DNA from: Pseudomonadota bacterium
Lineage (GTDB): Bacteria; Pseudomonadota; Alphaproteobacteria; G022571365
DNA: 64,000 nt
Reading direction: 5' to 3'
NCBI GenBank assembly: GCA_022571365.1
Contig: JACZXZ010000002.1
Span: forward strand, 14,402-78,401
The translations under genes were made by a program, and so were the position numbers. Under the pieces are notes generated by a model that saw only the letters and a program-made list of their open reading frames with translations, did no database searches and was not told the DNA's origin. Positions 24,130-39,400 of the stretch are shown piece by piece; positions within the stretch are counted from its first letter, which is position 1; the number at the start of each line of letters is the position of its first letter.

Positions 24130-24600
24130 TTAGAGCCAGCGCCTGACGGACGCCTTGTAGGCCAGGTACGCCGCGCCGAACTTCCCCTCCAGGTACCGTT
24201 CCTCGCGGGCGATCACGCCATAGCGGATGACGGCGAGGGCAGGCACGAGCAGTCCCAGAATCCACGGATTGTCCGCGACGATCCCGATTCCCGCGTGGAT
24301 CAGGCTCAACGACAGATAAATCGGGTTGCGGGAGAGCCGGAAGGGGCCCGTGGTGACGAGCGCGGTGGTCGGCTTGTGCGTTACGACGTTGGTGCCGGCC
24401 TTGCGGAGGCGCCGCATGACGAGGGCTATGATGACGACGCCCGGGAAGATGAGCGCAAGTCCGGCGGCGAATTGCCCGGTGCCCGGAAGGATCGCGGCCG
24501 GCCAGACATAATCGAGCCCCAAACCAAGCCCGAGAAATCCCAGATAGATGACCGGCGGCGGGGCGATGACCCCGGGGCAATCCCTGTTGTCTGCGGTCAC
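24130..24600 (-). CDS. Isoprenylcysteine carboxyl methyltransferase (ICMT)/phospholipid methyltransferase family membrane protein
   Basis: GPFRLSRNPIYL and REERYLEGKFGAAY motifs, 4-5 TM; GTG start. Confidence 0.7.
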   Translation of the reverse strand: MTADNRDCPGVIAPPPVIYLGFLGLGLGLDYVWPAAILPGTGQFAAGLALIFPGVVIIALVMRRLRKAGTNVVTHKPTTALVTTGPFRLSRNPIYLSLSLIHAGIGIVADNPWILGLLVPALAVIRYGVIAREERYLEGKFGAAYLAYKASVRRWL

Positions 24601-25468: not shown

Positions 25469-26914
25469 TCAGCCGGCGCAACAGGGCAGTTTGCTCACGT
25501 CCTTCTCGAAACTCAGGGCCGCGAGCTTGAGGCCTTCCACAGTCGTCAGATAGGGAAAGATGGTCTCCGCCAGATCGGTCACGGTGAGGCCGTGTTTGAT
25601 GGCGAGCACGGCCGTCTGGATACTGTCGCACCCTTCCGGCGCCAGAATGTGCGCGCCGAGCAAGCGCCCCGTCTTCCCCTCGGCCACCAATTTGATGAGG
25701 CCGCGCGTGTCGCGCGCGGCGAGCGCCCGGGGCACCAGCGCCAGCGGGAGGATGGCCGTCGCCACCTTCAGGTCCCGGTCGCGGGCTTGGGCTTCGGTCA
25801 AGCCAACGCTGGCCACTTGGGGATCGGTGAAGGCGATGGACGGCATGGCCGTGGCGTCGTAGTGGCGTCCGTCGCCGTTCAGCGCGTTCTCGGCCGCGAT
25901 CTTGCCCCCGTAGGCCGCCATGTAGACGAACTGGTCCCGGCCGGTCACGTCGCCGGCGGCGTAGATATTCGAGCCCGTCGTGCGCAACCGGTCGTCCACC
26001 TTGATGCCGCCGTTCGGGGTCAGCTCCACACCGGCCTCCTTCAGGCCCAGCCCCTGCGTGTTGGGCCGGCGACCGGCGCTGACCAGAATCTTCTCGGCCT
26101 CGATCGTCTCGGCGGCTTCGTCGCCTCCGATTGAAATAGCCACGCCTTCCGCCGTCCGCCGGATTTCTCTGTAGGAGATTCCACTGCGAATGGTGATCCC
26201 CTCGTCTCGGAAATAGCCGGCCAAGGCCTCGCCGATCTCCGGCTCGGCTTCCGGGAGCAGCCGGCGCCGGCAGAGGACGGTGACCTTCACGCCCGCCCGG
26301 GCAAGCATCTGGGCGAGCTCGCAGCCGATATATCCGGCCCCGATCACAAGCAGCGAGGCGGGCAGGCGCTCGAGCTCCAGGGCGCTCGTGCTGGTCAGGT
26401 AAGGAACGTCCTCAATCCCGGGGATCGGCGGCACCGCGGCGGAGGCGCCCGTTGTAATGACGATCTTATCGGAGCGCAGCAGGCTGCCGTTCACCGCCAC
26501 GCCGTCGCCGGTAAGGCGCGCCGGACCCTCCATATAGGTGATGGCGCTGTAGGACGGCAGCGGATCGCTGTACTTGGTCCGCCGCAGGCTTGCCACCAGT
26601 TCATCCTTCTGCGCGACGAGCGCGCGCCAGTCACCCAGCTCCGCATGGCCGCGGATGCCGGCAAAGCGCGCGGCGGTTCGTGCCTGATGGAGGGTCTCGA
26701 CCCCGCGGATCAGCGCCTTGGAAGGGACGCAGCCGACGTTGACGCAGGTTCCGCCGATGGTCCCGTGCCCGATGAGCGCGACTCGCGCCCCAAGCTCGGA
26801 AGCTTGGATGGCGGCGGCAAATCCCGCCGAGCCGGCGCCGATGACGATCAGGTCCGGCGCCCCATTGGCCTGGCTGGCGCTGCTGTCGCAGCAAGCCCGC
26901 GTGGCGCTGGTCAT
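25469..26914 (-). CDS. merA: Mercuric reductase MerA, core form without N-terminal HMA (NmerA) domain
   Basis: Redox-active disulfide GGTCVNVGCVPSK, FAD/NAD(P) Rossmann motifs, C-terminal vicinal Cys pair ...KLPCCAG* diagnostic of MerA; start at MTSATRACC (ORF track extends further upstream). Confidence 0.85.
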   Translation of the reverse strand: MTSATRACCDSSASQANGAPDLIVIGAGSAGFAAAIQASELGARVALIGHGTIGGTCVNVGCVPSKALIRGVETLHQARTAARFAGIRGHAELGDWRALVAQKDELVASLRRTKYSDPLPSYSAITYMEGPARLTGDGVAVNGSLLRSDKIVITTGASAAVPPIPGIEDVPYLTSTSALELERLPASLLVIGAGYIGCELAQMLARAGVKVTVLCRRRLLPEAEPEIGEALAGYFRDEGITIRSGISYREIRRTAEGVAISIGGDEAAETIEAEKILVSAGRRPNTQGLGLKEAGVELTPNGGIKVDDRLRTTGSNIYAAGDVTGRDQFVYMAAYGGKIAAENALNGDGRHYDATAMPSIAFTDPQVASVGLTEAQARDRDLKVATAILPLALVPRALAARDTRGLIKLVAEGKTGRLLGAHILAPEGCDSIQTAVLAIKHGLTVTDLAETIFPYLTTVEGLKLAALSFEKDVSKLPCCAG

Positions 26915-26937
26915 TGCACGGTCCCGGTGCCGCCGGA

Positions 26938-27183
26938 TCAAGCGGGCCGGTCGGCCCCTTGTCTCGAGGCCCTGCGGGCCAGAGCGTAGCGCACCACCGC
27001 ATAGATGGTGATCGCGATAAAGATCGCGAGAAGTGGAAAGAGAATGTAATCGAGCCAGCCGCCAACCCACGCCGACAGCCCAACCACACCGAACAGAACC
27101 GCCAGCACCGGGGTGAAACAGCAGACCCCGGTGATGACCGTGCCCCAGCCACCTGTGCGAAGAAGATTTTCGTTGGTGATCAT
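26938..27183 (-). CDS. merF: Mercury transporter MerF-like (81 aa, 2 TM)
   Basis: TGVCCFTPVLAVLFGVVGLSA ... LDYILFPLLAIFIAITIYA closely parallels MerF; only one vicinal Cys pair (the C-terminal CC of canonical MerF is absent). Confidence 0.7.
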   Translation of the reverse strand: MITNENLLRTGGWGTVITGVCCFTPVLAVLFGVVGLSAWVGGWLDYILFPLLAIFIAITIYAVVRYALARRASRQGADRPA

Positions 27184-27341
27184 GAGAGTCTCATCCTTGT
27201 CGAATGGTTGACTCCGCCGGAGTCAACAGGTCCATGAAAATGGCTTTGCCGACCTGCATTCCTTCTATCGAGGGACGACGGAGACCCCTTGACGCCGGGA
27301 ACCGACCTTGCAAATCGCCGATGGATGGTCCAATCATAGGA

Positions 27342-27358
27342 CCTGTAGTAACTATAGG
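27342..27358. promoter_or_regulatory. Candidate MerR operator (imperfect dyad CCTGTAG-TAA-CTATAGG) in the merR / merF divergent intergenic region
   Basis: Near-palindrome centred between the merF start (27183) and merR start (27385); MerR-type operators lie in the spacer of the regulated promoter. Confidence 0.3.
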
Positions 27359-27384
27359 TTCAAGTCTTTTTTTGGAGGGTCGCC

Positions 27385-27804
27385 ATGCTCGAGATTGACA
27401 TACCGCTCCTCAAGATCGGCGCGCTGGCGGAGCGGATCGGCTGCAAGGTCGAAACCATAAGGTATTACGAGGCCATCGGGATTCTGCCGAAGCCCGGGCG
27501 CAGCGAAGGCGGCCAGCGGATCTACAATCGCGACCACTTGAAGCGTCTCAACTTCGTCCGCCGCGCCCGGAACCTCGGCTTCACCCTGGACGAGGTCCGC
27601 GCGCTGCTGCGCCTGGTCGACGAAAAGGGGCATAGCTGCGCCGAGGTGCGGGCGCTGGGGCGCGCCCATCTCGACGGCGTCCGCGCCAGGATCGCGGACC
27701 TTGAGGCGCTCGAAGCGGTGTTGGAGAAGCTGGTCCAGGACTGCGCCGGCGGCACGGTCCCGGAGTGCCCGATCATCGAGGCGCTGTTCCGGGAGGCGGA
27801 CTAG
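27385..27804 (+). CDS. merR: MerR family Hg(II)-responsive transcriptional regulator
   Basis: N-terminal MerR HTH (IGALAERIGCKVETIRYYE), coiled-coil, three Cys in MerR positions (C in GHSCAEV; C-x8-C in DCAGGTVPECP); divergent from merF-merA. Confidence 0.8.
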   Translation: MLEIDIPLLKIGALAERIGCKVETIRYYEAIGILPKPGRSEGGQRIYNRDHLKRLNFVRRARNLGFTLDEVRALLRLVDEKGHSCAEVRALGRAHLDGVRARIADLEALEAVLEKLVQDCAGGTVPECPIIEALFREAD

Positions 27805-27948
27805 GGTCCGCGCCAAACCGCCGGTTAGCTGGCAGCAGAGGCCCGCTTTGTGATAGAGTTTCGGTGCCCGACAGGCTCGTGTGGGAAATGCCGGATTAAG
27901 GATGTCGGGTAAGATCAATAAGAATACCGGGTAAGATCAAAAGGGAGG

Positions 27949-28536
27949 ATGACGAAAATGACGAGCGCGACTTCAATTCACCCTGCCGTGGATCAGGGTG
28001 TGAAACCTGGGGCGCAGGATTTTGCGGGCGGGACGCTCGTGTGCAAATGCGATCAAAACCCCGTTGAGGTAACGGTTAAAGGGCAATGTGCACATAATCA
28101 CGTATGCGGCTGCACGCAGTGCTGGAAGCCTGAGGGCGCAGTGTTCTCGCAGATCGCGGTCGTGTCGCGTGACAACCTCAGCGTAACCGCGAACGAACAT
28201 AAGCTTGAGATCGTGGACCCCTCCGCAGGTATTCAGCGATACGCCTGCACGGGGTGCGGCGTTCATATGTATGGCCGTATCGAAAACAAAAATCACCCAT
28301 TCTTCGGGCTTGATTTCATCCATACTGAACTATCCAAGGAAGACGGCTGGGCAGAACCTAAATTCGCGGCATTCGTTTCCTCAGTCATTGAATCGGGAAC
28401 CAAACCCGATCAGATGGATAGTATCAGAGCAAGGCTGAGAGAACTGGGTCTAGAGCCTTATGATTGCCTTTCGCCGGCCTTGATGGATGCAATTGCAACC
28501 CATACCGCCAAGGCAGCGGGCGTCTTGAGTGACTAA
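27949..28536 (+). CDS. gfa: S-(hydroxymethyl)glutathione synthase (glutathione-dependent formaldehyde-activating enzyme)
   Basis: Near-identical to Gfa across its length (IHPAVDxGxKP...FAGGTLxCKC...[16 protein letters not shown]...[11 protein letters not shown]...FAAFVSSxIESG...[13 protein letters not shown]); coding GC ~52% vs ~68% surroundings. Confidence 0.9.
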
Positions 28537-28790
28537 TCATTCGATCGCGGTGAAATAACACCCGGCCGTCAATGGCCGTCTGTTCAAAGAGGGTATGCGC
28601 CTGAAAGCGCCGCTGTTTTGAGCTTGGGCAATATGGCGCGCCACGTCCACGAGCGGATCATGGACCATGGGTGAACGGTCGCCGGCAAAGCATTCCGAGT
28701 CGCTGAAACGTCTGCTCGACCGGGACGAGCCGGATTTCAAACACTAACGAGGGCGCCAAGGCAACAAGCACAATCCAAGGGAGGGATGGC

Positions 28791-29900
<1,110 letters not shown>

Positions 29901-29962
29901 AGCCTGATTCGAAAGATCCGACGCGGATGCCGGCGGGATCGCGGCGGCAACCCCGGCCGGCG

Positions 29963-31372
29963 TCAAAGCCGGCACAGGGGAGGGGTCCCGAGGCGCTCGC
30001 GCGCCGTGCCCAGAGTCTTCTCGATGGCGAGGCCCAGGGCGAGAAGCCGCTCGTCCGCGCCATGGCGGGCCATGAGCTGGAGTCCGACCGGCATGCCCGC
30101 TTGGTCGCGTGCGACCGGTAGCGTGAGCGCGCACATCCCGAACATGTTGGCGATGGAGGTATTGCGCAGCGCGCGCATGTTCATGGAATGATAGCCATCC
30201 ATCCCGGTCACCTCGGCGACCGCCGGCGGCGTCACCGGAACCGTGGGCGAGGCGAGCAAGTCCACGGCCGCCAGACGCCGGCCCGCCGAGGCGGCCAGCT
30301 CGGCGCTTCGGCGGTTCGAAAAGCCCCCGGCCGGCATGCCGCCACTGGCGGAGATTCGCCCCGTAACCACGGGATCCAGGGTCCCCAGCCATTCCGGAAG
30401 CCGGCTGGACAGGAAGGCGGAGCGTTCGGCGGCGATGCCGCCGCGGCCGACCTTGGAATAGATCTCGGACGCCTCTGCGGCTTCCGGCAGCGCGATCCTC
30501 ACGAGCTTGGCGCCCCTGGCGGCCACCTCGTCGAGCGCGGCCTTCACGCCTTCGGCCACGCCCGGCGAGCAGTCATCCCAGAACAGATCGTCGCAGATTC
30601 CGAGCCTCAACCCCGCCACCTCCACGCCCGCCAACAGTTGCCGGAAGCGCTCGATATCGTCGCACTCGGGATCGATGCCCGGAAAGGCGAAGGCGATGTC
30701 GGCCACCGACCGCGCGAGCAGGCCGGCGGTGTCGTAGGTCGGGCTCAAGGGCACGATCCCCGCCGTCGACCACCGGCCGACGGTGGTCTTGAGCCCGACA
30801 TTGCCCGTCATGCTGGCCGGAATCCTGATCGACCCCCCGGTGTCGGACCCGAGCGCGAGGAATGCCGAGCCTTCGCACAGGCTCACGCCGGCGCCGCTCG
30901 ACGACCCGCCGGGCACGCGGTGGACCTTCGCGTCCCACGGATTGCGCGGCGTACCCCAGTGCGTGTTGGTACCCAAGCCGCCAAAAGCGAACTCGACCGT
31001 GTGGGTCTTGCCGGTGATCACCGCCGCCTGCCGGCGCAGGGCCTGGATCACGGGCCCCTCGGCTTCCCACTCTTCCGGCAACCGCCTGGGCGAGCCGGCG
31101 TAGGTCGGCAAATCCTTGACCCCGTAGATGTCCTTGACCGAGATGGGAATGCCTTGCAACGGCCCCGAATCGAGGCCGGCGGCGAAAGCGGCGTCGGCCG
31201 TCCGGGCCTGGGCCAAAGCGCCATCGGGGTCCCAGGTCTTGTAGGCGCCGAGGACCGGGTCGAGGTGGTCGTGTCGGGCGATCGCCTCCTCGGCGAGCGC
31301 CTCGGCGCTGGTGCGCCCGGCCCTGAGGGCCTCGGCCACCTCTTCAAGCGGTTGGTGCATGAACTCAGTCAT
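29963..31372 (-). CDS. Amidase signature family protein
   Basis: GGSSSGAGV...GSDTGGSIRIPA amidase signature with Ser-cisSer-Lys catalytic context; start at MTEFMHQPLEE. Confidence 0.8.
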   Translation of the reverse strand: MTEFMHQPLEEVAEALRAGRTSAEALAEEAIARHDHLDPVLGAYKTWDPDGALAQARTADAAFAAGLDSGPLQGIPISVKDIYGVKDLPTYAGSPRRLPEEWEAEGPVIQALRRQAAVITGKTHTVEFAFGGLGTNTHWGTPRNPWDAKVHRVPGGSSSGAGVSLCEGSAFLALGSDTGGSIRIPASMTGNVGLKTTVGRWSTAGIVPLSPTYDTAGLLARSVADIAFAFPGIDPECDDIERFRQLLAGVEVAGLRLGICDDLFWDDCSPGVAEGVKAALDEVAARGAKLVRIALPEAAEASEIYSKVGRGGIAAERSAFLSSRLPEWLGTLDPVVTGRISASGGMPAGGFSNRRSAELAASAGRRLAAVDLLASPTVPVTPPAVAEVTGMDGYHSMNMRALRNTSIANMFGMCALTLPVARDQAGMPVGLQLMARHGADERLLALGLAIEKTLGTARERLGTPPLCRL

Positions 31373-31427
31373 GGTGAGTGACCGTGGCGTGGAGTCGATC
31401 CCGCGGGGATCCGCCTTCCCGGCCCGA

Positions 31428-31928
31428 TTACGCGGCGCGGCGGCCGCTGAGCGCCGCCTCTTCAACGCGCACGCGGTGACGCAGCAGAAGGAGGTTCATG
31501 AGGGAGAAGACGAGGGCGATCTCCCACGCGCCGAAGGCGAGCGGCAGGATGGCGATCTCGGCGATCACCACCAGGTAGTTGGGATGGTGGAGGAAACGGT
31601 AGGGGCCGCGCTTGACCAGCGGCGCGCCGGGCAACGTGATGATCCGGGTCGTCCAGTATTTGCCCAGGCTCGCGATGGTCCAGACCCGCGCGGCCAACAG
31701 CGCGGCGAAGAGGCCGATGAGCGGCCAGTGGAGCGGCGCGTCCTCCGGCACCGCCAGCAGGAGGGCGAGGAGCCAGGCGCCGTGGAGCAGGATGAACAGC
31801 GGGTAATGGTCCGCCCCGACCTCCACCGCACCCTCGGCCAGCAGGCGCCGGGTGTTGCGCCGGGCGTGGACGAGCTCGCCCAGGCGCTGCAAGACGACCA
31901 GCGCGACGATCCAGTCGTGGATGCTCAC
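31428..31928 (-). CDS. ICMT-family membrane methyltransferase, translationally coupled to the type III PKS (SrsB-like)
   Basis: GPYRFLHHPNYL motif, 4 TM, 166 aa; start overlaps PKS stop (31925-31928). Confidence 0.7.
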   Translation of the reverse strand: MSIHDWIVALVVLQRLGELVHARRNTRRLLAEGAVEVGADHYPLFILLHGAWLLALLLAVPEDAPLHWPLIGLFAALLAARVWTIASLGKYWTTRIITLPGAPLVKRGPYRFLHHPNYLVVIAEIAILPLAFGAWEIALVFSLMNLLLLRHRVRVEEAALSGRRAA

Positions 31929-32971
31929 CCCACCTCCATGGTGAGAAACGCGGCCGTGAAGCCCGGCCCCAGCGCCGACAGGAGATAGCGGCCGGTATCG
32001 CCCGCTTTAAGCGCCCGGTCCAGAACGAACATGACGGAGGCCGCCGACATGTTGCCGTACTCTCTGAGAACGGCGCGGGCGTGGTCCAAGACGCCGTTGT
32101 CGAGGCCGAGCGCCGCCTCAAACGCGGCCAGCACCTTGGCGCCCCCGGGATGGCAGAGGAAGCTGTCGATGTCGTCCAAGCCCAGGTCCTGCCGCCCGAG
32201 AAAGTCTTCGAGCGCGGGGCGCAGCTGGTCGCGCACCAGGGCCGGGATATCGCGCGAGAACAGGACGCCGAGGCCGTCCTCCTCGACCCTCCAGCCCATC
32301 ACGTCGAGGGAGTTCGGCCAGGTGTGCTCGCCCCAAGCGGTTAACGTGGATCCGTTGCCGGTGCAGCCGATGAGGGCCGCGGCGGCGCCGTCGCCGAACA
32401 GGGCCGAGGCGATGACGTTGCTTTTCGATTGGTCGGTCCGACGGAAGGTCAGGCCGCACAACTCCACCACCAGGAACAGGATCTTCTGTTCCGGCGCCGC
32501 CTGGGCGAGGGCGGCGGCGCGGGCCAGTCCCAGCACGCCGCCGGCACAGCCCAGGCCGAAAATCGGCAGGCGCTGGACGTCGCGCCGCATGCCGAGGCGT
32601 TCCATGAGCAGCGCATCGAGGCTCGGGGTGGCGATGCCCGAGGTCGAGACCGCGACGATGCCGTCCACCTCCTCGACGCCGCACCCCGCCGCCGCCAGGC
32701 AGTCGAGGGTGGCACGCTCCAGAAGCGCGACGGCGTTATCGATATAGAGCCGGTTGCGTTCGACCCAGCCATGCTTTTTCTGGTACCAGTCCACCGGCAC
32801 GCAGGAATAACGCGTCTCGATGCCGGCATTTTCGTAGACGGGCAGCAGGCGCTCGATCTCGTCGCCGAGTTCGGGAAACAGCCGCCGGGCGTGGGCCGCC
32901 ACCTCCGATTGCCGCAATATGAAAGGCGGGACGGCGGTGGCGAGGGCAAGCAGTCCAGGTGCGGGCAGCAT
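31925..32971 (-). CDS. Type III polyketide synthase (chalcone/stilbene synthase superfamily)
   Basis: Catalytic Cys in FGLGCAGG, His in FLCHPGGAKV, Asn in GNMSAASV; 348 aa. Confidence 0.9.
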   Translation of the reverse strand: MLPAPGLLALATAVPPFILRQSEVAAHARRLFPELGDEIERLLPVYENAGIETRYSCVPVDWYQKKHGWVERNRLYIDNAVALLERATLDCLAAAGCGVEEVDGIVAVSTSGIATPSLDALLMERLGMRRDVQRLPIFGLGCAGGVLGLARAAALAQAAPEQKILFLVVELCGLTFRRTDQSKSNVIASALFGDGAAAALIGCTGNGSTLTAWGEHTWPNSLDVMGWRVEEDGLGVLFSRDIPALVRDQLRPALEDFLGRQDLGLDDIDSFLCHPGGAKVLAAFEAALGLDNGVLDHARAVLREYGNMSAASVMFVLDRALKAGDTGRYLLSALGPGFTAAFLTMEVG

Positions 32972-33189
32972 CGCTCACGGACCTCCTTTGCTCTTAGCCC
33001 TACAGTCGATAATGGCCGAATGCCAGCGAGACATATGGACATATCGATAAAGCCCGCCGCCAACGGAAGCGACGTTATCGGTCAGGTCCGAGCCGGCCGG
33101 AAGCGCAATTCGGTTGCGCTTCGGCGTGGACTTTACCATTCTGGGGACGAAACCGTTGCGGTGAATCGATTCATTCGACGGGAAGCAGA

Positions 33190-33990
33190 ATGAAACGCGA
33201 GAGTTCCGAAGCTCAGAGTCCATCCTCGCGCAAGCCGAAGGTTGTCAACAACCCGGCGGCGCAGGCACAGCCCGTGAAGATCAAGCTGGGCGGCAAGCTG
33301 CGCGCCTATTTCCTTGCCGGCGTCCTGGTCACCGCACCGATCGCGATTACCTTCTACATCGCTTGGCTGGTCATCGATTTCGTAGACAGTCGGGTGACGC
33401 CGCTCATCCCGGCCAAATACAATCCGGAAACCTACCTGCCGTTCGGCATTCCCGGCCTCGGGCTGATCATCGTGATCATCGTCCTCACGCTGGTCGGCTG
33501 GCTCACCGCCGGTTACCTCGGCCGCCTGTTCCTGCGCATGGGCGAAAGGGTGTTGGCCCGGATGCCGTTCGTCCGCAGCGTTTACAGCGCCACCAAACAA
33601 ATCGTCGAAACCGTGCTGACCCGGCAGTCGAGCGCCTTCCGCCAGGTTGTCTTGTTCGAGTACCCGCGCCGCGGCAGCTGGGCGCTCGGCTTCATCACCG
33701 GCCAGACCCAGGGCGAGGTCCAGAGCCTGACCCAGGACGAGGTCGTCAACGTGTTCCTGCCGACCACGCCCAACCCGACCTCCGGCTACCTCCTGTTCGT
33801 GCCGCTGAAAGATCTGGTGGTGCTGGACATGACGGTGGAGGAGGGCATCAAGATGGTCGTCTCGGGTGGGATCATCACGCCGCCCGACCGGCGGCCGGCG
33901 CGCATCCGCGCGCTGCCGAAGATCGCCGCGGCCGAGCGAGACACGCCCACGATCCCGATCAAGGCGGGCAAAAAGGGCGGCTCAGCCTGA
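33190..33990 (+). CDS. DUF502 family membrane protein
   Basis: Two N-terminal TM helices then conserved MPFVRSVYSATKQIVETV ... PTTPNPTSGYLLFVP motifs typical of DUF502. Confidence 0.7.
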   Translation: MKRESSEAQSPSSRKPKVVNNPAAQAQPVKIKLGGKLRAYFLAGVLVTAPIAITFYIAWLVIDFVDSRVTPLIPAKYNPETYLPFGIPGLGLIIVIIVLTLVGWLTAGYLGRLFLRMGERVLARMPFVRSVYSATKQIVETVLTRQSSAFRQVVLFEYPRRGSWALGFITGQTQGEVQSLTQDEVVNVFLPTTPNPTSGYLLFVPLKDLVVLDMTVEEGIKMVVSGGIITPPDRRPARIRALPKIAAAERDTPTIPIKAGKKGGSA

Positions 33991-36057
33991 GCGCACGTAT
34001 TTCACCACGGCATCCCGTTCGAACAGGTACAACAGCGTCCTCAAGGCCGCGCCGCGGGGCGTCTCGAGGCCAGGGTCGCGCTCCAGGATGAGCCGGGCGT
34101 CGTCGCGGGCCACGGCCAGAAGCTCGGCATGCTCGGCCAGGTCGGCCAAGCGGAAGTCGGGCAGGCCGCTTTGCCGCGTGCCCAGAAGCTCGCCGGCGCC
34201 GCGCAGGCGCAAATCCTCCTCGGCGATGCGGAATCCGTCGTCGGTCTCGCGCAGGATTTTGAGCCGCGCCCGCGCCGTCGGGGTGAGCGGCCCGGCATAT
34301 AGAAACAGGCAGGTGGACGGCTTGTCGCCGCGCCCGATACGCCCGCGCAGCTGATGCAGCTGGGCCAGGCCGAAGCGCTCGGCGTGCTCGATCACCATGA
34401 TGTTCGCCGCAGGCACGTCGACGCCGACCTCGATCACCGTGGTGGCGACCAGGACGCCCAGGTCGCCTTTGGCGAAGGCGGCCATGACCGCGTCCTTCTC
34501 GGGGCCCTTCATGCGTCCGTGAACGAGGCCCACACGGCCGCCGAACCGGCCGGTGAGGTAGGCGTGACGCTCGCTGGCGGCGGCCAGATCCACCGCCTCG
34601 GACTCCTCGACCAGGGGACACACCCAATACGCTCTCGCCCCCTGGCCGACCCTCCGCTTGACGGCGGCGACCACCTCCCCGAGGCGGGACAGCGGCATCG
34701 TCCTGGTATCGACCGGCGGCCGGCCGGCCGGCTTCTCGGTGAGGGGCGAGACATCCATGTCGCCGTAGGCCGCGAGCAACAGCGTGCGCGGAATCGGCGT
34801 CGCCGTCATCACCAGCATGTCGACGCCGCGCCCCTTGGCCGCGAGCATCAGGCGCTGGTGCACGCCGAACCGGTGCTGCTCGTCGACGACGGCGAGACCC
34901 AGATCCCGGAAGGCGACCTGTTCCTGGAACAGGGCGTGGGTGCCGACCGCGAGTTTGATATCTCCGGCGGCGAGACCGTCGAGGACGGCCCGGCGCTCCT
35001 TGCCCTTGCCGCGTCCGGTCAAGAGCGCGATCTCGACGCCGGCGGCCCGGGCCAGCGGCTCCATGGTGGCCATGTGCTGGCGCGCGAGGATCTCGGTCGG
35101 CGCCATCAGCGCGGCCTGATGCCCGGCCTCGACCGCATTCAGCATGGCCATGAGCGCGACCACCGTCTTGCCGCTGCCGACATCGCCCTGGAGGAGGCGC
35201 AGCATGCGCGCGTCCGAGGCCATGTCGGCGGCGATCTGGGCAAGCGCCTGTTCCTGCGAGCCGGTGAGTCGGAAGGGCAGTGCTTTCAACACGCGCTCAC
35301 GCAACCGGCCGTCGCCGGCAACGGCCCGACCCGGCAGGCGGCGCAGCTGGACCCGCGCCAGGGCGAGCGCCAGCTGGCTGGCCAGGAGTTCGTCATAGGC
35401 CAGCCGCGCCCGCGCCGCCGGCGTCAGCCCGGCCCGGGTCTCCGGCGCGTGCGCTTCGCACAGGGCCGCGCGCCAGGATTTCCAGCCCTGGCGTGCGAGG
35501 TAGGCCGGGTCGATCCATTCGGCCAGCTCGGGCGCCCGTTTCAGCGCCGCGCGCACCGCCTTGCCCAAGGTGTTGAGGGTCAGCCCGGCGGTCAGCCTGT
35601 AGACCGGTTCGACCCGCTGCAGATGGTCGAGCTCGTCGAGGGTGGCGATATAGTCGGGGTGGGTTATCTGAATCTGCTTGTTGTAGTGCTCGACCTTGCC
35701 GCTTACGACCCGAAGCTCGCCTTCCGGCAGGACCCGACGCAGGTAGTCGGGCCGGGCGTGAAAGAACACCAGATCGAGACGGCCGGTCTGGTCGGAGCAG
35801 CGCACCTTATAGGGCAGGCGCGGATGCCGCGGCGGCAGGTGGGCATCGACCCGAAGCTTGATCGTCGCGATGGCGCCGGGCGGGGCCTCCGCCACCTTGG
35901 GGGCGAAGCGGCGGTCGATCACGTCCGTCGGCAGGTGCCACAGGAGGTCGACCACATGGGGGCCGGCAACCTTCTCGATGAGCTTGGCGATGCGCGGGCC
36001 GACCCCGTCAAACGAGGTCACGGGCGCAAACAAAGCAAACAGAATCTCCGGACGCAT
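33982..36057 (-). CDS. recG: ATP-dependent DNA helicase RecG
   Basis: 691 aa; wedge domain, helicase motifs (GDVGSGKT; DEQHRFG; TATPIPRT), C-terminal TRG motif. Confidence 0.95.
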   Translation of the reverse strand: MRPEILFALFAPVTSFDGVGPRIAKLIEKVAGPHVVDLLWHLPTDVIDRRFAPKVAEAPPGAIATIKLRVDAHLPPRHPRLPYKVRCSDQTGRLDLVFFHARPDYLRRVLPEGELRVVSGKVEHYNKQIQITHPDYIATLDELDHLQRVEPVYRLTAGLTLNTLGKAVRAALKRAPELAEWIDPAYLARQGWKSWRAALCEAHAPETRAGLTPAARARLAYDELLASQLALALARVQLRRLPGRAVAGDGRLRERVLKALPFRLTGSQEQALAQIAADMASDARMLRLLQGDVGSGKTVVALMAMLNAVEAGHQAALMAPTEILARQHMATMEPLARAAGVEIALLTGRGKGKERRAVLDGLAAGDIKLAVGTHALFQEQVAFRDLGLAVVDEQHRFGVHQRLMLAAKGRGVDMLVMTATPIPRTLLLAAYGDMDVSPLTEKPAGRPPVDTRTMPLSRLGEVVAAVKRRVGQGARAYWVCPLVEESEAVDLAAASERHAYLTGRFGGRVGLVHGRMKGPEKDAVMAAFAKGDLGVLVATTVIEVGVDVPAANIMVIEHAERFGLAQLHQLRGRIGRGDKPSTCLFLYAGPLTPTARARLKILRETDDGFRIAEEDLRLRGAGELLGTRQSGLPDFRLADLAEHAELLAVARDDARLILERDPGLETPRGAALRTLLYLFERDAVVKYVRSG

Positions 36058-36135
36058 GACTCGCGGCTTGTGAGAGCTGACAGGGCAAGCTCAAGGTTCT
36101 ATATCCTACATACTAGGGTGTCGCAGGTGCACGCA

Positions 36136-36408
36136 ATGACTGAGGAGACGAACGCCCGCCTGAAGCGCCTCCTGTTCCGCAGTTGGCACCGGGGCACGCG
36201 GGAAATGGATCTGCTGCTCGGCAATTTTGCCCGGCGCCATCTCGAGTCCTTCACCGAGGACCAGCTCGACCGGTTCGAAGCCCTGATCGAGCTCGGCGAT
36301 CCTGAGCTTTTTGCCTGGATCAGTGGTCTTGAGAGCGTGCCGCCGGGCCTCGACAACGACGTCATGAGCCTTCTAAAGGACTTCAAGTTCAGGTCTATAA
36401 GTGATTGA
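36136..36408 (+). CDS. sdhE: FAD assembly factor SdhE (DUF339)
   Basis: 90 aa; RLLFRSWHRGTREMDLLLGNFA ... DPELFAWI signature. Confidence 0.8.
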   Translation: MTEETNARLKRLLFRSWHRGTREMDLLLGNFARRHLESFTEDQLDRFEALIELGDPELFAWISGLESVPPGLDNDVMSLLKDFKFRSISD

Positions 36409-39400
36409 AATTAAACTATAACGAACTTTCAGAGCCGGGCCGGGTCGTAATCTCGGGGGCGCCCGAGGGCTTCGACGCCCTGATCCTCGGCGCCTTTGCC
36501 GCCTCGGGCGCGGTCCGCGATCTCCTGCACATCGCCCGCGACGATGCGCGCATGGCGCTCATGGCCGAGGCGCTGGCCTTCTTCGCCCCCGGGGTCGAGG
36601 TGCTGACCCTGCCGGCCTGGGACTGTCTGCCCTATGACCGGATGTCGCCCAACGGCGACGTGGTGAGCCGCCGCATCGACACCTTGAGTCGGCTCGCCGC
36701 GGGCCGGACCCCATGCCGGATCGTGCTGACCACGGTGAACGCGTGCTTGCAGCGCATGCCGCCCCGGGAAATGTTCGCGGACTCGACCTGGCGCGCGCAT
36801 GTCGGCGAGACGCTGTCGCGTGACGAACTCCTCGGATTTCTGACACGGAACGGCTACAGCCGGGCGGAGACCGTACGCGAGCCCGGCGAGTACGCGGTGC
36901 GCGGCGGCATCATCGACATCTTCCCCCCGGGGAGCCGGGAGCCCTTGAGGCTCGATCTGTTCGGCGAGGTGCTCGACGGGGTGCGCAGCTTCGATCCGCT
37001 GTCCCAGCGGAGCACCGGCAAGCGCCAGGCGATCACGCTCAAACCCGTGAGCGAGATCCTGCTGGACGGCGCGACCATCTCCCGCTTCCGCATGGGTTAC
37101 CGGGAGCTGTTCGGAGCGGTGGCCGGGCACGACCCGCTCTACGAGGCGATCAGCGCCGGCCGCAGGCACATTGGCATGGAGCACTGGCTGCCCCTGTTCC
37201 ACGAGAGGCTGGAGACGGTGTTCGACTACCTGCCCGAGGCCGCCGTCACCCTCGACCACCAGGCCGAGGAGGCGGTCGGGGCGCGGTTCGACCTGATCGC
37301 CGAACACTACCAGGCGCGCGGCAGCCTGGCCGGCCGGGGCGGAGCCGCCGCCGACGGAGCGATCTACAAGCCGCTGCCGCCGGATCGGCTCTATCTCGGC
37401 CGGAAGGAATGGAAGGCGCTCATCGGGCGGCGCGCGGCCGGCTTCTTTTCGCCGTTCGCGGCGCCGGAAGGGGAGGCGAGGACGGTCGATGCCGGCGGCA
37501 AGCGGGGCCGTGACTTCGCGGACGCCCGCGTCCGGGCCGACGTCAACCTGTTCGACGCCGTGGGCCGCACCATCGCCGAGGAACGCGCGGCCGGGCGACG
37601 CGTCATCATCACCGCCTACAGCGCCGGCGCCCGCGACCGCCTGCACGGGCTCTTGAGGGATCACGGGGTCGCCGAGCTGGTCATCGTCGATAGCTGGCCG
37701 GACGTGGTCTCCCTGCCGCCCGCCGCCGCCGCCCTTGTCGTCCTGGCGCTCGAGCACGGATTCCAGACGCCGGAAGCGACGGTCATCACCGAGCAGGACA
37801 TCCTGGGCGAGCGCTTGACCCGCGCCGTCCGCCGCCGGCGCCGGGCGGAGAACTTCATCCAGGAGGCATCGAGCCTCAACCAAGGCGACCTGGTCGTCCA
37901 CGTCGAGCACGGCATCGGCCGTTATGACGGGCTGGAGACCCTGGAGGTCTCGGGCGCGCCCCACGATTGCCTGCGCCTGGCCTACGATGGCGGCGACCGG
38001 CTGTACGTCCCGGTCGAGAACATCGAGATGCTGTCGCGCTACGGCTCGGAGACCAGCGGCGTCCAGCTCGACCGCTTGGGCAGCGCCCACTGGCAGGCCC
38101 GCAAGGCCCGGGTCAAGAAGCGCATCAAGGACATCGCCGAGCGCCTGATCCGGGTCGCCGCCGAGCGGCATCTGCGCACGGCTCCGGTCATGGCCCCGCC
38201 CGAGGGCCTGTACGACGAGTTCTGCGCCCGCTTTCCCTATCCCGAGACCGAGGACCAGCTCAAGAGCATCGAGGACACCCTGGAGGACTTGAGCAACGGG
38301 CGGCCGATGGACCGCCTGATCTGTGGCGACGTCGGTTTCGGCAAGACCGAGGTGGCGCTCAGGGCCGCCTTCATCGCGGTCATGTCGGGCGCCCAGGTCG
38401 CGGTGGTGGTGCCGACCACGCTCTTGAGCCGCCAGCACTACCAGACCTTCCATGAGCGCTTCGCCGCCTTGCCGGTTCGGATCGAGCAGCTCTCGCGGCT
38501 GGTGTCGGCGGGACGCGCGGCGGCGGTCAAGCGGGGACTCGCCGAGGGCACCGTGGACATCGTCATCGGCACCCACGCGCTCTTGGGCAAGACCGTCCGG
38601 TTCAAGAACCTGGGTCTGGTGGTGGTCGACGAGGAGCAACATTTCGGCGTGGCCCAAAAGGAGCGGCTCAAGGAGCTCGAGAGCGACGTCCACGTGCTCA
38701 CGCTCACCGCGACTCCGATCCCGCGCACCCTGCAGATGGCCCTGACCGGCGTGCGCGAGATGAGCCTGATCGCCACCCCACCGGTCGACCGGCTGGCGGT
38801 CAGGACCTTCGTCCTGCCCTATGACCCGGTGGTCGTGCGCGAGGCGATTCTGCGCGAGCACCGGCGCGGCGGACAGGCCTTCTACGTCTGCCCCCGGATC
38901 GAAGACCTGCCCCGGCTGGGCCAGCGGCTCGAGGAGCTGGTGCCCGAGGTCAAGATCGCCACCGCCCATGGCCGCATGGCGGCGGGCAAGCTGGAGCGGA
39001 TCATGGCGGGCTTCTACGACCGCGCCTACGACCTGTTGTTGTCCACCAACATCATCGAGTCCGGCCTGGACATACCGAGTGTCAACACCATGATCGTCCA
39101 CCGCGCCGACATGTTCGGGCTCGCCCAGCTTTACCAGCTCCGGGGCCGGATCGGGCGCTCCAAGGTCCGGGCCTACGCCTACCTCACCCTGCCGTCCCAC
39201 GACGTGCTCTCGGCCACCGCGCGCCGGCGGCTCGATGTCATGCAGACCCTCGACAGCCTCGGGGCCGGCTTCAGCCTGGCGAGCTACGACCTGGATATTC
39301 GCGGCGCCGGCAACCTCCTGGGCGATGAACAGTCGGGCCATATCCGCGAGGTCGGCATCGAGCTGTATCAGCAGTTGCTCGAGGAGGCGGTGGCGCGCGG

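Follow-up and report, generated by a model that had tools for sequence, protein, structure and literature searches.

A type III polyketide synthase gene and an ICMT-family methyltransferase gene form a conserved pair, probably for methylated phenolic lipids, in an alphaproteobacterial genome

We analyzed a 64,000-nt stretch of contig JACZXZ010000002.1 (assembly GCA_022571365.1; hereafter the window, to which all positions refer) and found that it contains adjoining genes for a type III polyketide synthase (PKS) and an integral-membrane methyltransferase of the ICMT family which very probably constitute a two-gene operon, similar to bpsAB, dquAB and srsAB, for the methylated long-chain phenolic lipids of a membrane, with the amidase gene that follows them being separate. 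Both proteins carry the required catalytic residues and folds, their genes are translationally coupled, and the pair is co-inherited at a fixed chromosomal site in many Alphaproteobacteria. The activities that we ascribe to them, that is, extension of a fatty acyl starter, cyclization and O-methylation, as well as the envelope location of the product, are those expected from characterized relatives (PMC9827899, PMC5916927, PMC6274091).

Three co-oriented open reading frames (ORFs) on the minus strand fill positions 29963-32971 in the ORF list. The PKS gene (31925..32971, minus strand) encodes a protein of 348 aa with the Pfam domains Chal_sti_synt_N and Chal_sti_synt_C, and is followed by the gene for the methyltransferase, which depends on S-adenosylmethionine (SAM) and has a Pfam ICMT domain (31428..31928, minus strand; 166 aa). 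The GTG start codon of the latter runs into the TGA stop of the PKS gene (...ATG GAG GTG GGG TGA), so that the two genes share a 4-bp GTGA stop/start overlap (31925..31928, minus strand), a signal of translational coupling that can be read directly in the sequence. A GGAGG lies 4 nt upstream of this overlap and an AAGGAGG lies 9 nt 5′ of the PKS ATG. The third gene, for an amidase-signature enzyme (29963..31372, minus strand), starts 55 nt after the stop codon of the methyltransferase gene and is judged to be outside the PKS-ICMT unit. The third-position GC of the three genes (0.87, 0.94 and 0.87 for PKS, methyltransferase and amidase, respectively) favors these frames over many spurious overlapping high-GC ORFs, and the E-values of their domain matches (1e-18 to 1e-80) are far beyond chance. 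A sequence-only reading that preceded our analysis had described a PKS with an intact Cys-His-Asn triad, a methyltransferase gene overlapping it by 4 bp and an amidase gene 55 nt further on, and we found all of these, along with every motif it had quoted from the two proteins (positions are given below).

Upstream, the PKS gene is separated from a divergent DUF502 gene by an intergenic region of 218 nt (32972..33189, from the ORF coordinates) which presumably holds the promoter of the pair. Our promoter scan returned no sigma-70 consensus site, in this region included, and an Rfam E-value scan of positions 27000-37000 for regulatory RNAs and riboswitches matched no family there or elsewhere. 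The sole terminator-like site lies inside the PKS coding sequence, with none in the 55-nt gap before the amidase gene, and the RNA folding of the two short gaps is ordinary (z-scores of -0.55 and -1.0).

For a protein to be regarded as a type III PKS we asked for both Chal_sti_synt domains, each scoring above its curated threshold, and for a single-domain length of about 350-400 aa; the window PKS is of this size and scored 80.7 bits (Chal_sti_synt_N) and 65.1 bits (Chal_sti_synt_C) against cut-offs of 27. Its catalytic residues, Cys142 (codon 32546-32548), His274 (codon 32150-32152) and Asn307 (codon 32051-32053; all minus strand), lie in the motifs GLGCAGG (residues 139-145), CHPGGAK (273-279) and GNMSAAS (306-312) and align with the triad of Mycobacterium tuberculosis Pks11. 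The triad, Phe192 (within LFGDGAA) and the GPG loop are invariant among 25 orthologs. Pks11 is also the best sequence match of the protein in the PDB (1.8e-50, 175 bits), and in this alignment Cys142 corresponds to the residue that is mutated in entry 4jat, which differs from 4jao only by a Ser at that position; the title of the top-matching entry states that the structure reveals intermediates of methyl-branched alkylpyrone synthesis. An AF2 model of the PKS (pLDDT 86, pTM 0.90) had PKS11 as its top Foldseek match (TM 0.90, 31% identity), followed by the alkylresorcinol synthase CylI, and its TM values of 0.86-0.90 to many type III PKS structures are indicative of the thiolase-type αβαβα fold. 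The closest characterized relatives are therefore enzymes primed with long-chain acyl groups, PKS11 by both sequence and fold and CylI next by fold, with the tetrahydroxynaphthalene (THN) synthase 1u0m ranked third by sequence. PKS homologs number in the thousands, and JGI annotates the nearest of them (65-73% identity) as “alkylresorcinol/alkylpyrone synthase”. Based on best-hit ranking, fold search and synteny, we infer that the window PKS belongs with the alkylresorcinol/alkylpyrone synthases (BpsA/SrsA/PKS11-like) and probably shares their preference for lipid starters.

Two further features of the PKS bear on its substrate and product. Lys279, five residues past His274, is the equivalent of DquA Lys278, a position linked to starters delivered by acyl carrier protein (ACP) (PMC9827899), and it provides a hint, but only a hint, that the window enzyme might receive its starter as acyl-ACP. 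The PKS sequence does not discriminate between a pyrone and a resorcinol as the product: the Trp/Gly position reported to decide between them in ArsB/ArsC mispredicted the product of DquA (PMC9827899).

The methyltransferase scored 97.7 bits against the Pfam ICMT profile (cut-off 24), with positions 2-93 of the 95 in the profile covered, and it has the ICMT fold. Work on Ste14/ICMT has defined a C-terminal cofactor-binding consensus in such enzymes, consisting of RHPxY, a hydrophobic stretch and then EE. The window protein matches it with GPYRF/HHPNY at residues 108-118 (HHPNY being 114-118) and with Glu156-Glu157 near its C-terminus, and H115, P116, N117, Y118 and E156 do not vary across 28 orthologs. 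We rejected the possibility that the protein is a true ortholog of the protein-prenylcysteine methyltransferases, because it scored only 19 bits against the NCBIfam equivalog for these enzymes (cut-off 160); a score so far below the cut-off leads to the conclusion that it is a member of the ICMT family with a different substrate, as are BpsB and SrsB. Elsewhere, the window encodes another small membrane methyltransferase, also from the ICMT/PEMT superfamily (24130-24600, minus strand; PEMT 56.6 bits, ICMT 27.6 bits), where its gene adjoins coaD and is linked to no PKS gene.

Is the pair a chance neighborhood or a unit? A scan with one genome per species gave 80 related loci with PKS identities of 58-68%, mostly from Alphaproteobacteria (Rhodospirillales, Stellaceae, Kiloniellaceae, Telmatospirillum, Pelagibius, Minwuia). 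The ICMT gene is directly 3′ of the PKS gene on the same strand in 78 of these, and the contigs of the remaining two end at the PKS. Of 79 related loci, 54 have an ATGA/GTGA overlap and 72 a gap of no more than 10 nt between the genes, and the overlap recurs in the plasmid copies of Rhizobium sp. BG4 and Marinovum algicola. On the other side, a DUF502 gene is divergently upstream of the PKS gene in 43-44 of the 80 loci and recG lies beyond it in 31 (by ORF clustering) or 36 (by tblastn), with mfd there too; the pair thus adjoins DUF502-recG-mfd in about half of the loci, and also in Rhodospirillum centenum. In the window the nearby genes are DUF502, recG, mfd, the amidase gene, frmA and gfa, and the stretch as a whole is a typical alphaproteobacterial core stretch (tat, serS, secDF, uvrA, ssb, gyrA, coaD, recG, mfd, metG, groEL and ntrXY-like genes). 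The mean identity of the PKS (62%) is close to that of RecG (66%), with a weak correlation between the two (r = 0.40, p = 0.015), and the GC content and skew of the pair are unremarkable, giving no signal of horizontal transfer. Fixed synteny, RecG-like divergence and ordinary GC lead to the conclusion that the pair behaves as a unit passed on vertically at one constant place in the chromosome and not as an island, and the earlier suggestion that it is an uncommon secondary-metabolite locus in a core region did not hold. Moreover, the fixed site beside DUF502-recG-mfd and a divergence about as slow as that of RecG point to a long-standing physiological role.

Downstream of the pair there is no such constancy. 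When all ORFs within 4 kb were clustered across the 80 loci, no family was found 3′ of the pair in more than eight, and accordingly no hydroxylase, transporter or acyl-activating enzyme forms a conserved third gene. Distant copies (44-49% identity) on replicons of Azospirillum lipoferum, Rhizobium and Marinovum keep the PKS-ICMT order and have third genes that differ (an SDR, an MFS exporter, a hypothetical protein). At the other extreme, an identical PKS protein is encoded with the same gene order on contig JADFSJ010000011.1 (metagenome-assembled genome [MAG] GCA_022560825.1) and several metagenomic contigs.

The counterpart in R. centenum (CP000613.2, locus L094, 10662-20531) has mfd-sdh5-recG-DUF502 divergent to PKS-ICMT and is syntenic with the window. 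Its PKS (ACI98675.1 = B6IT04, also AAD43969.1) is 55% identical to that of the window and its methyltransferase 71% identical; unlike the window genes, however, its PKS has a 13-residue insertion and the two genes are separated by 3 nt with no overlap. Where the window has the amidase gene, R. centenum has a gene for a Crp/Fnr-family regulator and then fixGHIS-ccoNOQP (cbb3 oxidase), an adjacency that our clustering of the 80 loci did not recover as conserved. R. centenum RpsA converts C6-C20 acyl-CoA with methylmalonyl-/malonyl-CoA to alkyl-dimethylpyrones or alkyl-dimethylresorcylic acids (PMC6274091), and a ppr photoreceptor mutant of this species has a deregulated chalcone synthase gene (PMC2993699). 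That B6IT04 is RpsA and/or the product of the Ppr-regulated gene is an unconfirmed identity, which we offer as a lead.

How might the two enzymes work together? To judge from its family, the PKS would be a soluble homodimer whose Cys142 receives a fatty acyl starter of medium or long chain, either from acyl-CoA or, given Lys279, possibly from acyl-ACP, and would then extend this starter by two or three malonyl- or methylmalonyl-CoA units. Ring closure would occur either by lactonization, to give a 4-hydroxy-6-alkyl-2-pyrone, or by aldol condensation, to give an alkylresorcylic acid or alkylresorcinol. The ICMT-fold enzyme, if it acts as its relatives do, would O-methylate a free hydroxyl at the membrane using SAM, and the resulting alkylpyrone or alkylresorcinol methyl ether would remain in the envelope and change the properties of the membrane.

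Such a pathway has several precedents. Bacillus subtilis bpsA-bpsB and Sporomusaceae dquA-dquB have the same two-gene order as the window, a PKS gene and then an ICMT-family gene, and they likewise have no hydroxylase; BpsB O-methylates the products of BpsA, and DquA/DquB, encoded by a conserved PKS/ICMT-like two-gene locus, make long-chain alkylpyrones (PMC9827899). The catalytic residues of DquA (Cys141/His273/Asn306 and Lys278) are offset by one from those of the window PKS (142/274/307 and 279), and both dquA-dquB and the window pair are conserved within their lineages, a pattern more suggestive of a physiological than of an antibiotic role (PMC9827899). The hosts differ, the window being from the MAG of a Gram-negative alphaproteobacterium for which neither spores nor cysts are known, and the window PKS is only approximately 45% identical to a Firmicute (Brevibacillus) homolog. 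The srs cluster, whose products are methylated phenolic lipids (PMC5916927), and the pks10 operon of Mycobacterium smegmatis also couple an alkylresorcinol-type PKS to an O-methyltransferase (PMC5916927, PMC10896814), but Streptomyces griseus srsABC and the pks10 operon are of three genes, with a hydroxylase/oxidase through which alkylquinones are formed. In the window the next gene is that for the amidase, with no hydroxylase of the SrsC type or FAD oxidoreductase beside the pair, and none of the gene families that recur 3′ of the pair in the 80 loci is one of oxidoreductases; the sequence-only reading was correct that no such gene follows, and it is for this reason that the locus resembles bpsAB/dquAB rather than srsABC. 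The long-chain methyl-branched alkylpyrone synthase PKS11 (4jao/4jat) remains the best match by sequence and fold, at about 31% identity and in another genomic context. In Azotobacter vinelandii, arsABCD specifies type III PKSs whose alkylresorcinols and alkylpyrones enter the membrane (PMC5916927, PMC6274091), and here the resemblance ends, as there are two PKSs, fed by the type I fatty acid synthase (FAS)-like ArsA/ArsD, and no ICMT-type methyltransferase, while the window has no ArsA/ArsD-like genes. Consequently, the proposal of an srsAB-like phenolic-lipid operon stands with regard to the pair itself (PKS11 as best match, the fold and motif of the ICMT enzyme, and the conserved pairing and overlap), whereas the likeness to Azotobacter ars that accompanied it is functional only.

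Several observations weigh against a two-gene phenolic-lipid operon. The pair has no adjoining gene for a fatty-acid-activating enzyme or an ACP; methyltransferase residue 114, the first of (R/H)HPxY, is His in place of the usual Arg (among 27 aligned orthologs it is Arg in most, His in one and Lys in two); read-through into the amidase gene is possible because the 55-nt gap has no terminator-like site; and THN synthase, a non-lipid enzyme, scored only somewhat lower (151 bits) than Pks11 (175 bits), so that the starter preference of the PKS is no more than probable. Could the PKS, then, be a non-lipid aromatic synthase, primed by malonyl-CoA or a short acyl group as are THN, phloroglucinol or DpgA-like enzymes, with the methyltransferase acting on a small aromatic compound? 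This is highly improbable. The THN synthase match, and DpgA as the best NCBIfam match of the PKS (147 bits), are in its favor, yet the DpgA score is far under the 425-bit cut-off, long-chain enzymes (PKS11 and CylI) head both the sequence and the fold matches, an integral-membrane methyltransferase of the ICMT fold suits a lipidic substrate, and the characterized PKS/ICMT-type pairs that we found in the literature all handle long-chain phenolic lipids (PMC9827899, PMC5916927). We also think it distinctly unlikely that the pair makes precursors of polyketide quinones, the alkylbenzoquinones that carry electrons when oxygen is low, as in M. smegmatis and S. griseus, for respiration, rather than inert membrane lipids. 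In M. smegmatis, a homologous srs-like three-gene operon yields O-methylated alkylresorcinols that are oxidized to quinones for anaerobic respiration (PMC5916927), and the fix/cco genes and Crp/Fnr-type regulator beside the syntenic pair of R. centenum are suggestive given this low-oxygen role of the mycobacterial quinones. That adjacency is not seen in the window, though, downstream families recur in at most eight of the 80 loci, and without an SrsC-like or FAD-dependent oxidase adjoining the pair, here or as a conserved feature of the 80 loci, quinone formation would require an unlinked oxidase.

The remaining alternative is that all three genes are one functional operon in which the amidase either cleaves an N-acyl amide, so freeing a fatty acid to serve as starter, or modifies a product of the PKS-methyltransferase pair that bears an amide. 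The amidase scored 271.6 bits against Pfam Amidase, its 469 aa from the ATG at 31372 equal the length of the deposited protein, and it has the signature residues Lys80, GGSSSG (155-160, with Ser157/158) and GGSIR (179-183, with Ser181). It is under the cut-off for every NCBIfam equivalog, including that for GatA (the Glu-tRNA(Gln) amidotransferase subunit A), a name that JGI gives to its homologs and that we reject (TIGR00132, 202 bits versus a cut-off of 481). The same strand, the 55-nt distance and a gap with neither a terminator-like site nor an unusually stable hairpin would suit one operon, as would the return of the PKS-ICMT-amidase order in two other lineages (amidase identity 56%), namely directly after the pair in one of the 80 loci (L051) and on one metagenomic contig (L093; recG-DUF502-hydrolase-PKS-ICMT-amidase-PALP-Usp). 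Against this, the pair is without this amidase in 79 of the 80 loci, no other third gene is conserved in its stead, and amidase orthologs at 53-61% identity are common in other settings. At L090, mfd-sdh5-recG-DUF502 is followed by two amidase genes, one of them 61% identical, and no PKS-ICMT; at L091 the order amidase-PALP-Usp, which is shared with L093, occurs with no PKS; and on a Limibacillus-type contig the ortholog is among TRAP transporter genes. In addition, an amide bond occurs in none of the products known from PKSs of this class. We therefore consider one three-gene operon very unlikely and reject the amidase as a pathway member on comparative context. Its occurrence with and without the pair indicates that it is part of the chromosomal backbone, most probably a separate gene beside which the pair has moved in or out, and a shared function is unlikely; the earlier idea that it might modify the PKS product or provide the starter is thus not supported, and predictions of the cluster at the PKS-ICMT locus can leave the amidase out.

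A PKS paired with an ICMT-type methyltransferase is an established and widely distributed route to methylated alkylpyrone/alkylresorcinol membrane lipids, so the two-gene phenolic-lipid operon itself adds little new biology. A broader reading would make the pair no accessory secondary-metabolite locus but a nearly housekeeping module for envelope lipids, inherited vertically in Rhodospirillales-like Alphaproteobacteria, fixed beside the gene for the uncharacterized membrane protein DUF502 and co-regulated with it from the shared divergent promoter, with DUF502 possibly handling or sensing the methylated phenolic lipid. We regard this as unlikely, as DUF502 stays by recG where the pair is absent (L090) and plasmid-borne pairs are without DUF502. 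If it were true, it would be the first functional lead for DUF502, and phenolic lipids would then be of importance to alphaproteobacteria that live freely in the sea and in soil and have neither cysts nor spores. Cultured carriers of the pair include R. centenum, Telmatospirillum sp. J64-1, Pelagibius marinus and Azospirillum lipoferum.

Some features of the related loci deserve mention. In thirteen Stellaceae-like loci (L016, L019, L023, L026, L031, L035, L039, L042, L054, L056, L072, L075 and L076), the intergenic region between the divergent DUF502 and PKS genes contains two shared conserved boxes, CGCGAACATGTGATCC and CACTNTAAC, approximately 95 nt and 30 nt 5′ of the PKS start, which are possible operator and promoter elements; neither box was found in the window. 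Two relatives, L059 and L081, have only a partial ICMT match (residues 67-165 and 68-118) or no in-frame start, which suggests frameshifts, decay or assembly errors. Lastly, loci L033, L043, L049, L064 and L073 and the Eremiobacterota-labeled L025, L066, L080 and L085 carry labels of non-alphaproteobacterial MAGs (Udaeobacter, Flavobacteriales, Longimicrobiales, Betaproteobacteria, Acidiferrales, Eremiobacterota). The alphaproteobacterial recG-DUF502-PKS synteny of L033, L043 and L025, which includes mfd in the first two, points to mis-binned contigs or recent transfer.

The surroundings of the amidase gene provided further observations. The near-palindromic 19-mer CGATCCCGCGGGGATCCGC occurs twice in the short gaps that flank this gene, at 31396-31414 and, with two mismatches, at 29923-29941. 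This is statistically unusual (the chance expectation is approximately 0.26 matches per window), but the element is degenerate in a relative of 96-98% identity and absent from other species, and we treat it as incidental. In a close relative (L006, 12386-12680), an insertion of approximately 300 nt with tandem CCTCAGGGTGAGGTCAAGCAGRAAGCCTC-like repeats, which the window does not have, separates the amidase gene from frmA. Converging on the amidase gene in the window is the pair gfa and frmA (27949-29900, plus strand) for glutathione-dependent formaldehyde detoxification, encoding an S-hydroxymethylglutathione synthase (338 bits) and a class III alcohol dehydrogenase (621 bits), respectively. 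Beyond them, at 25469-27804, a compact mercury-resistance set lies within the otherwise housekeeping stretch, comprising merA (25469-27070, minus strand; MerA equivalog, 543 bits), merF (26938-27183, minus strand) and, divergent from both, merR (27385-27804, plus strand).

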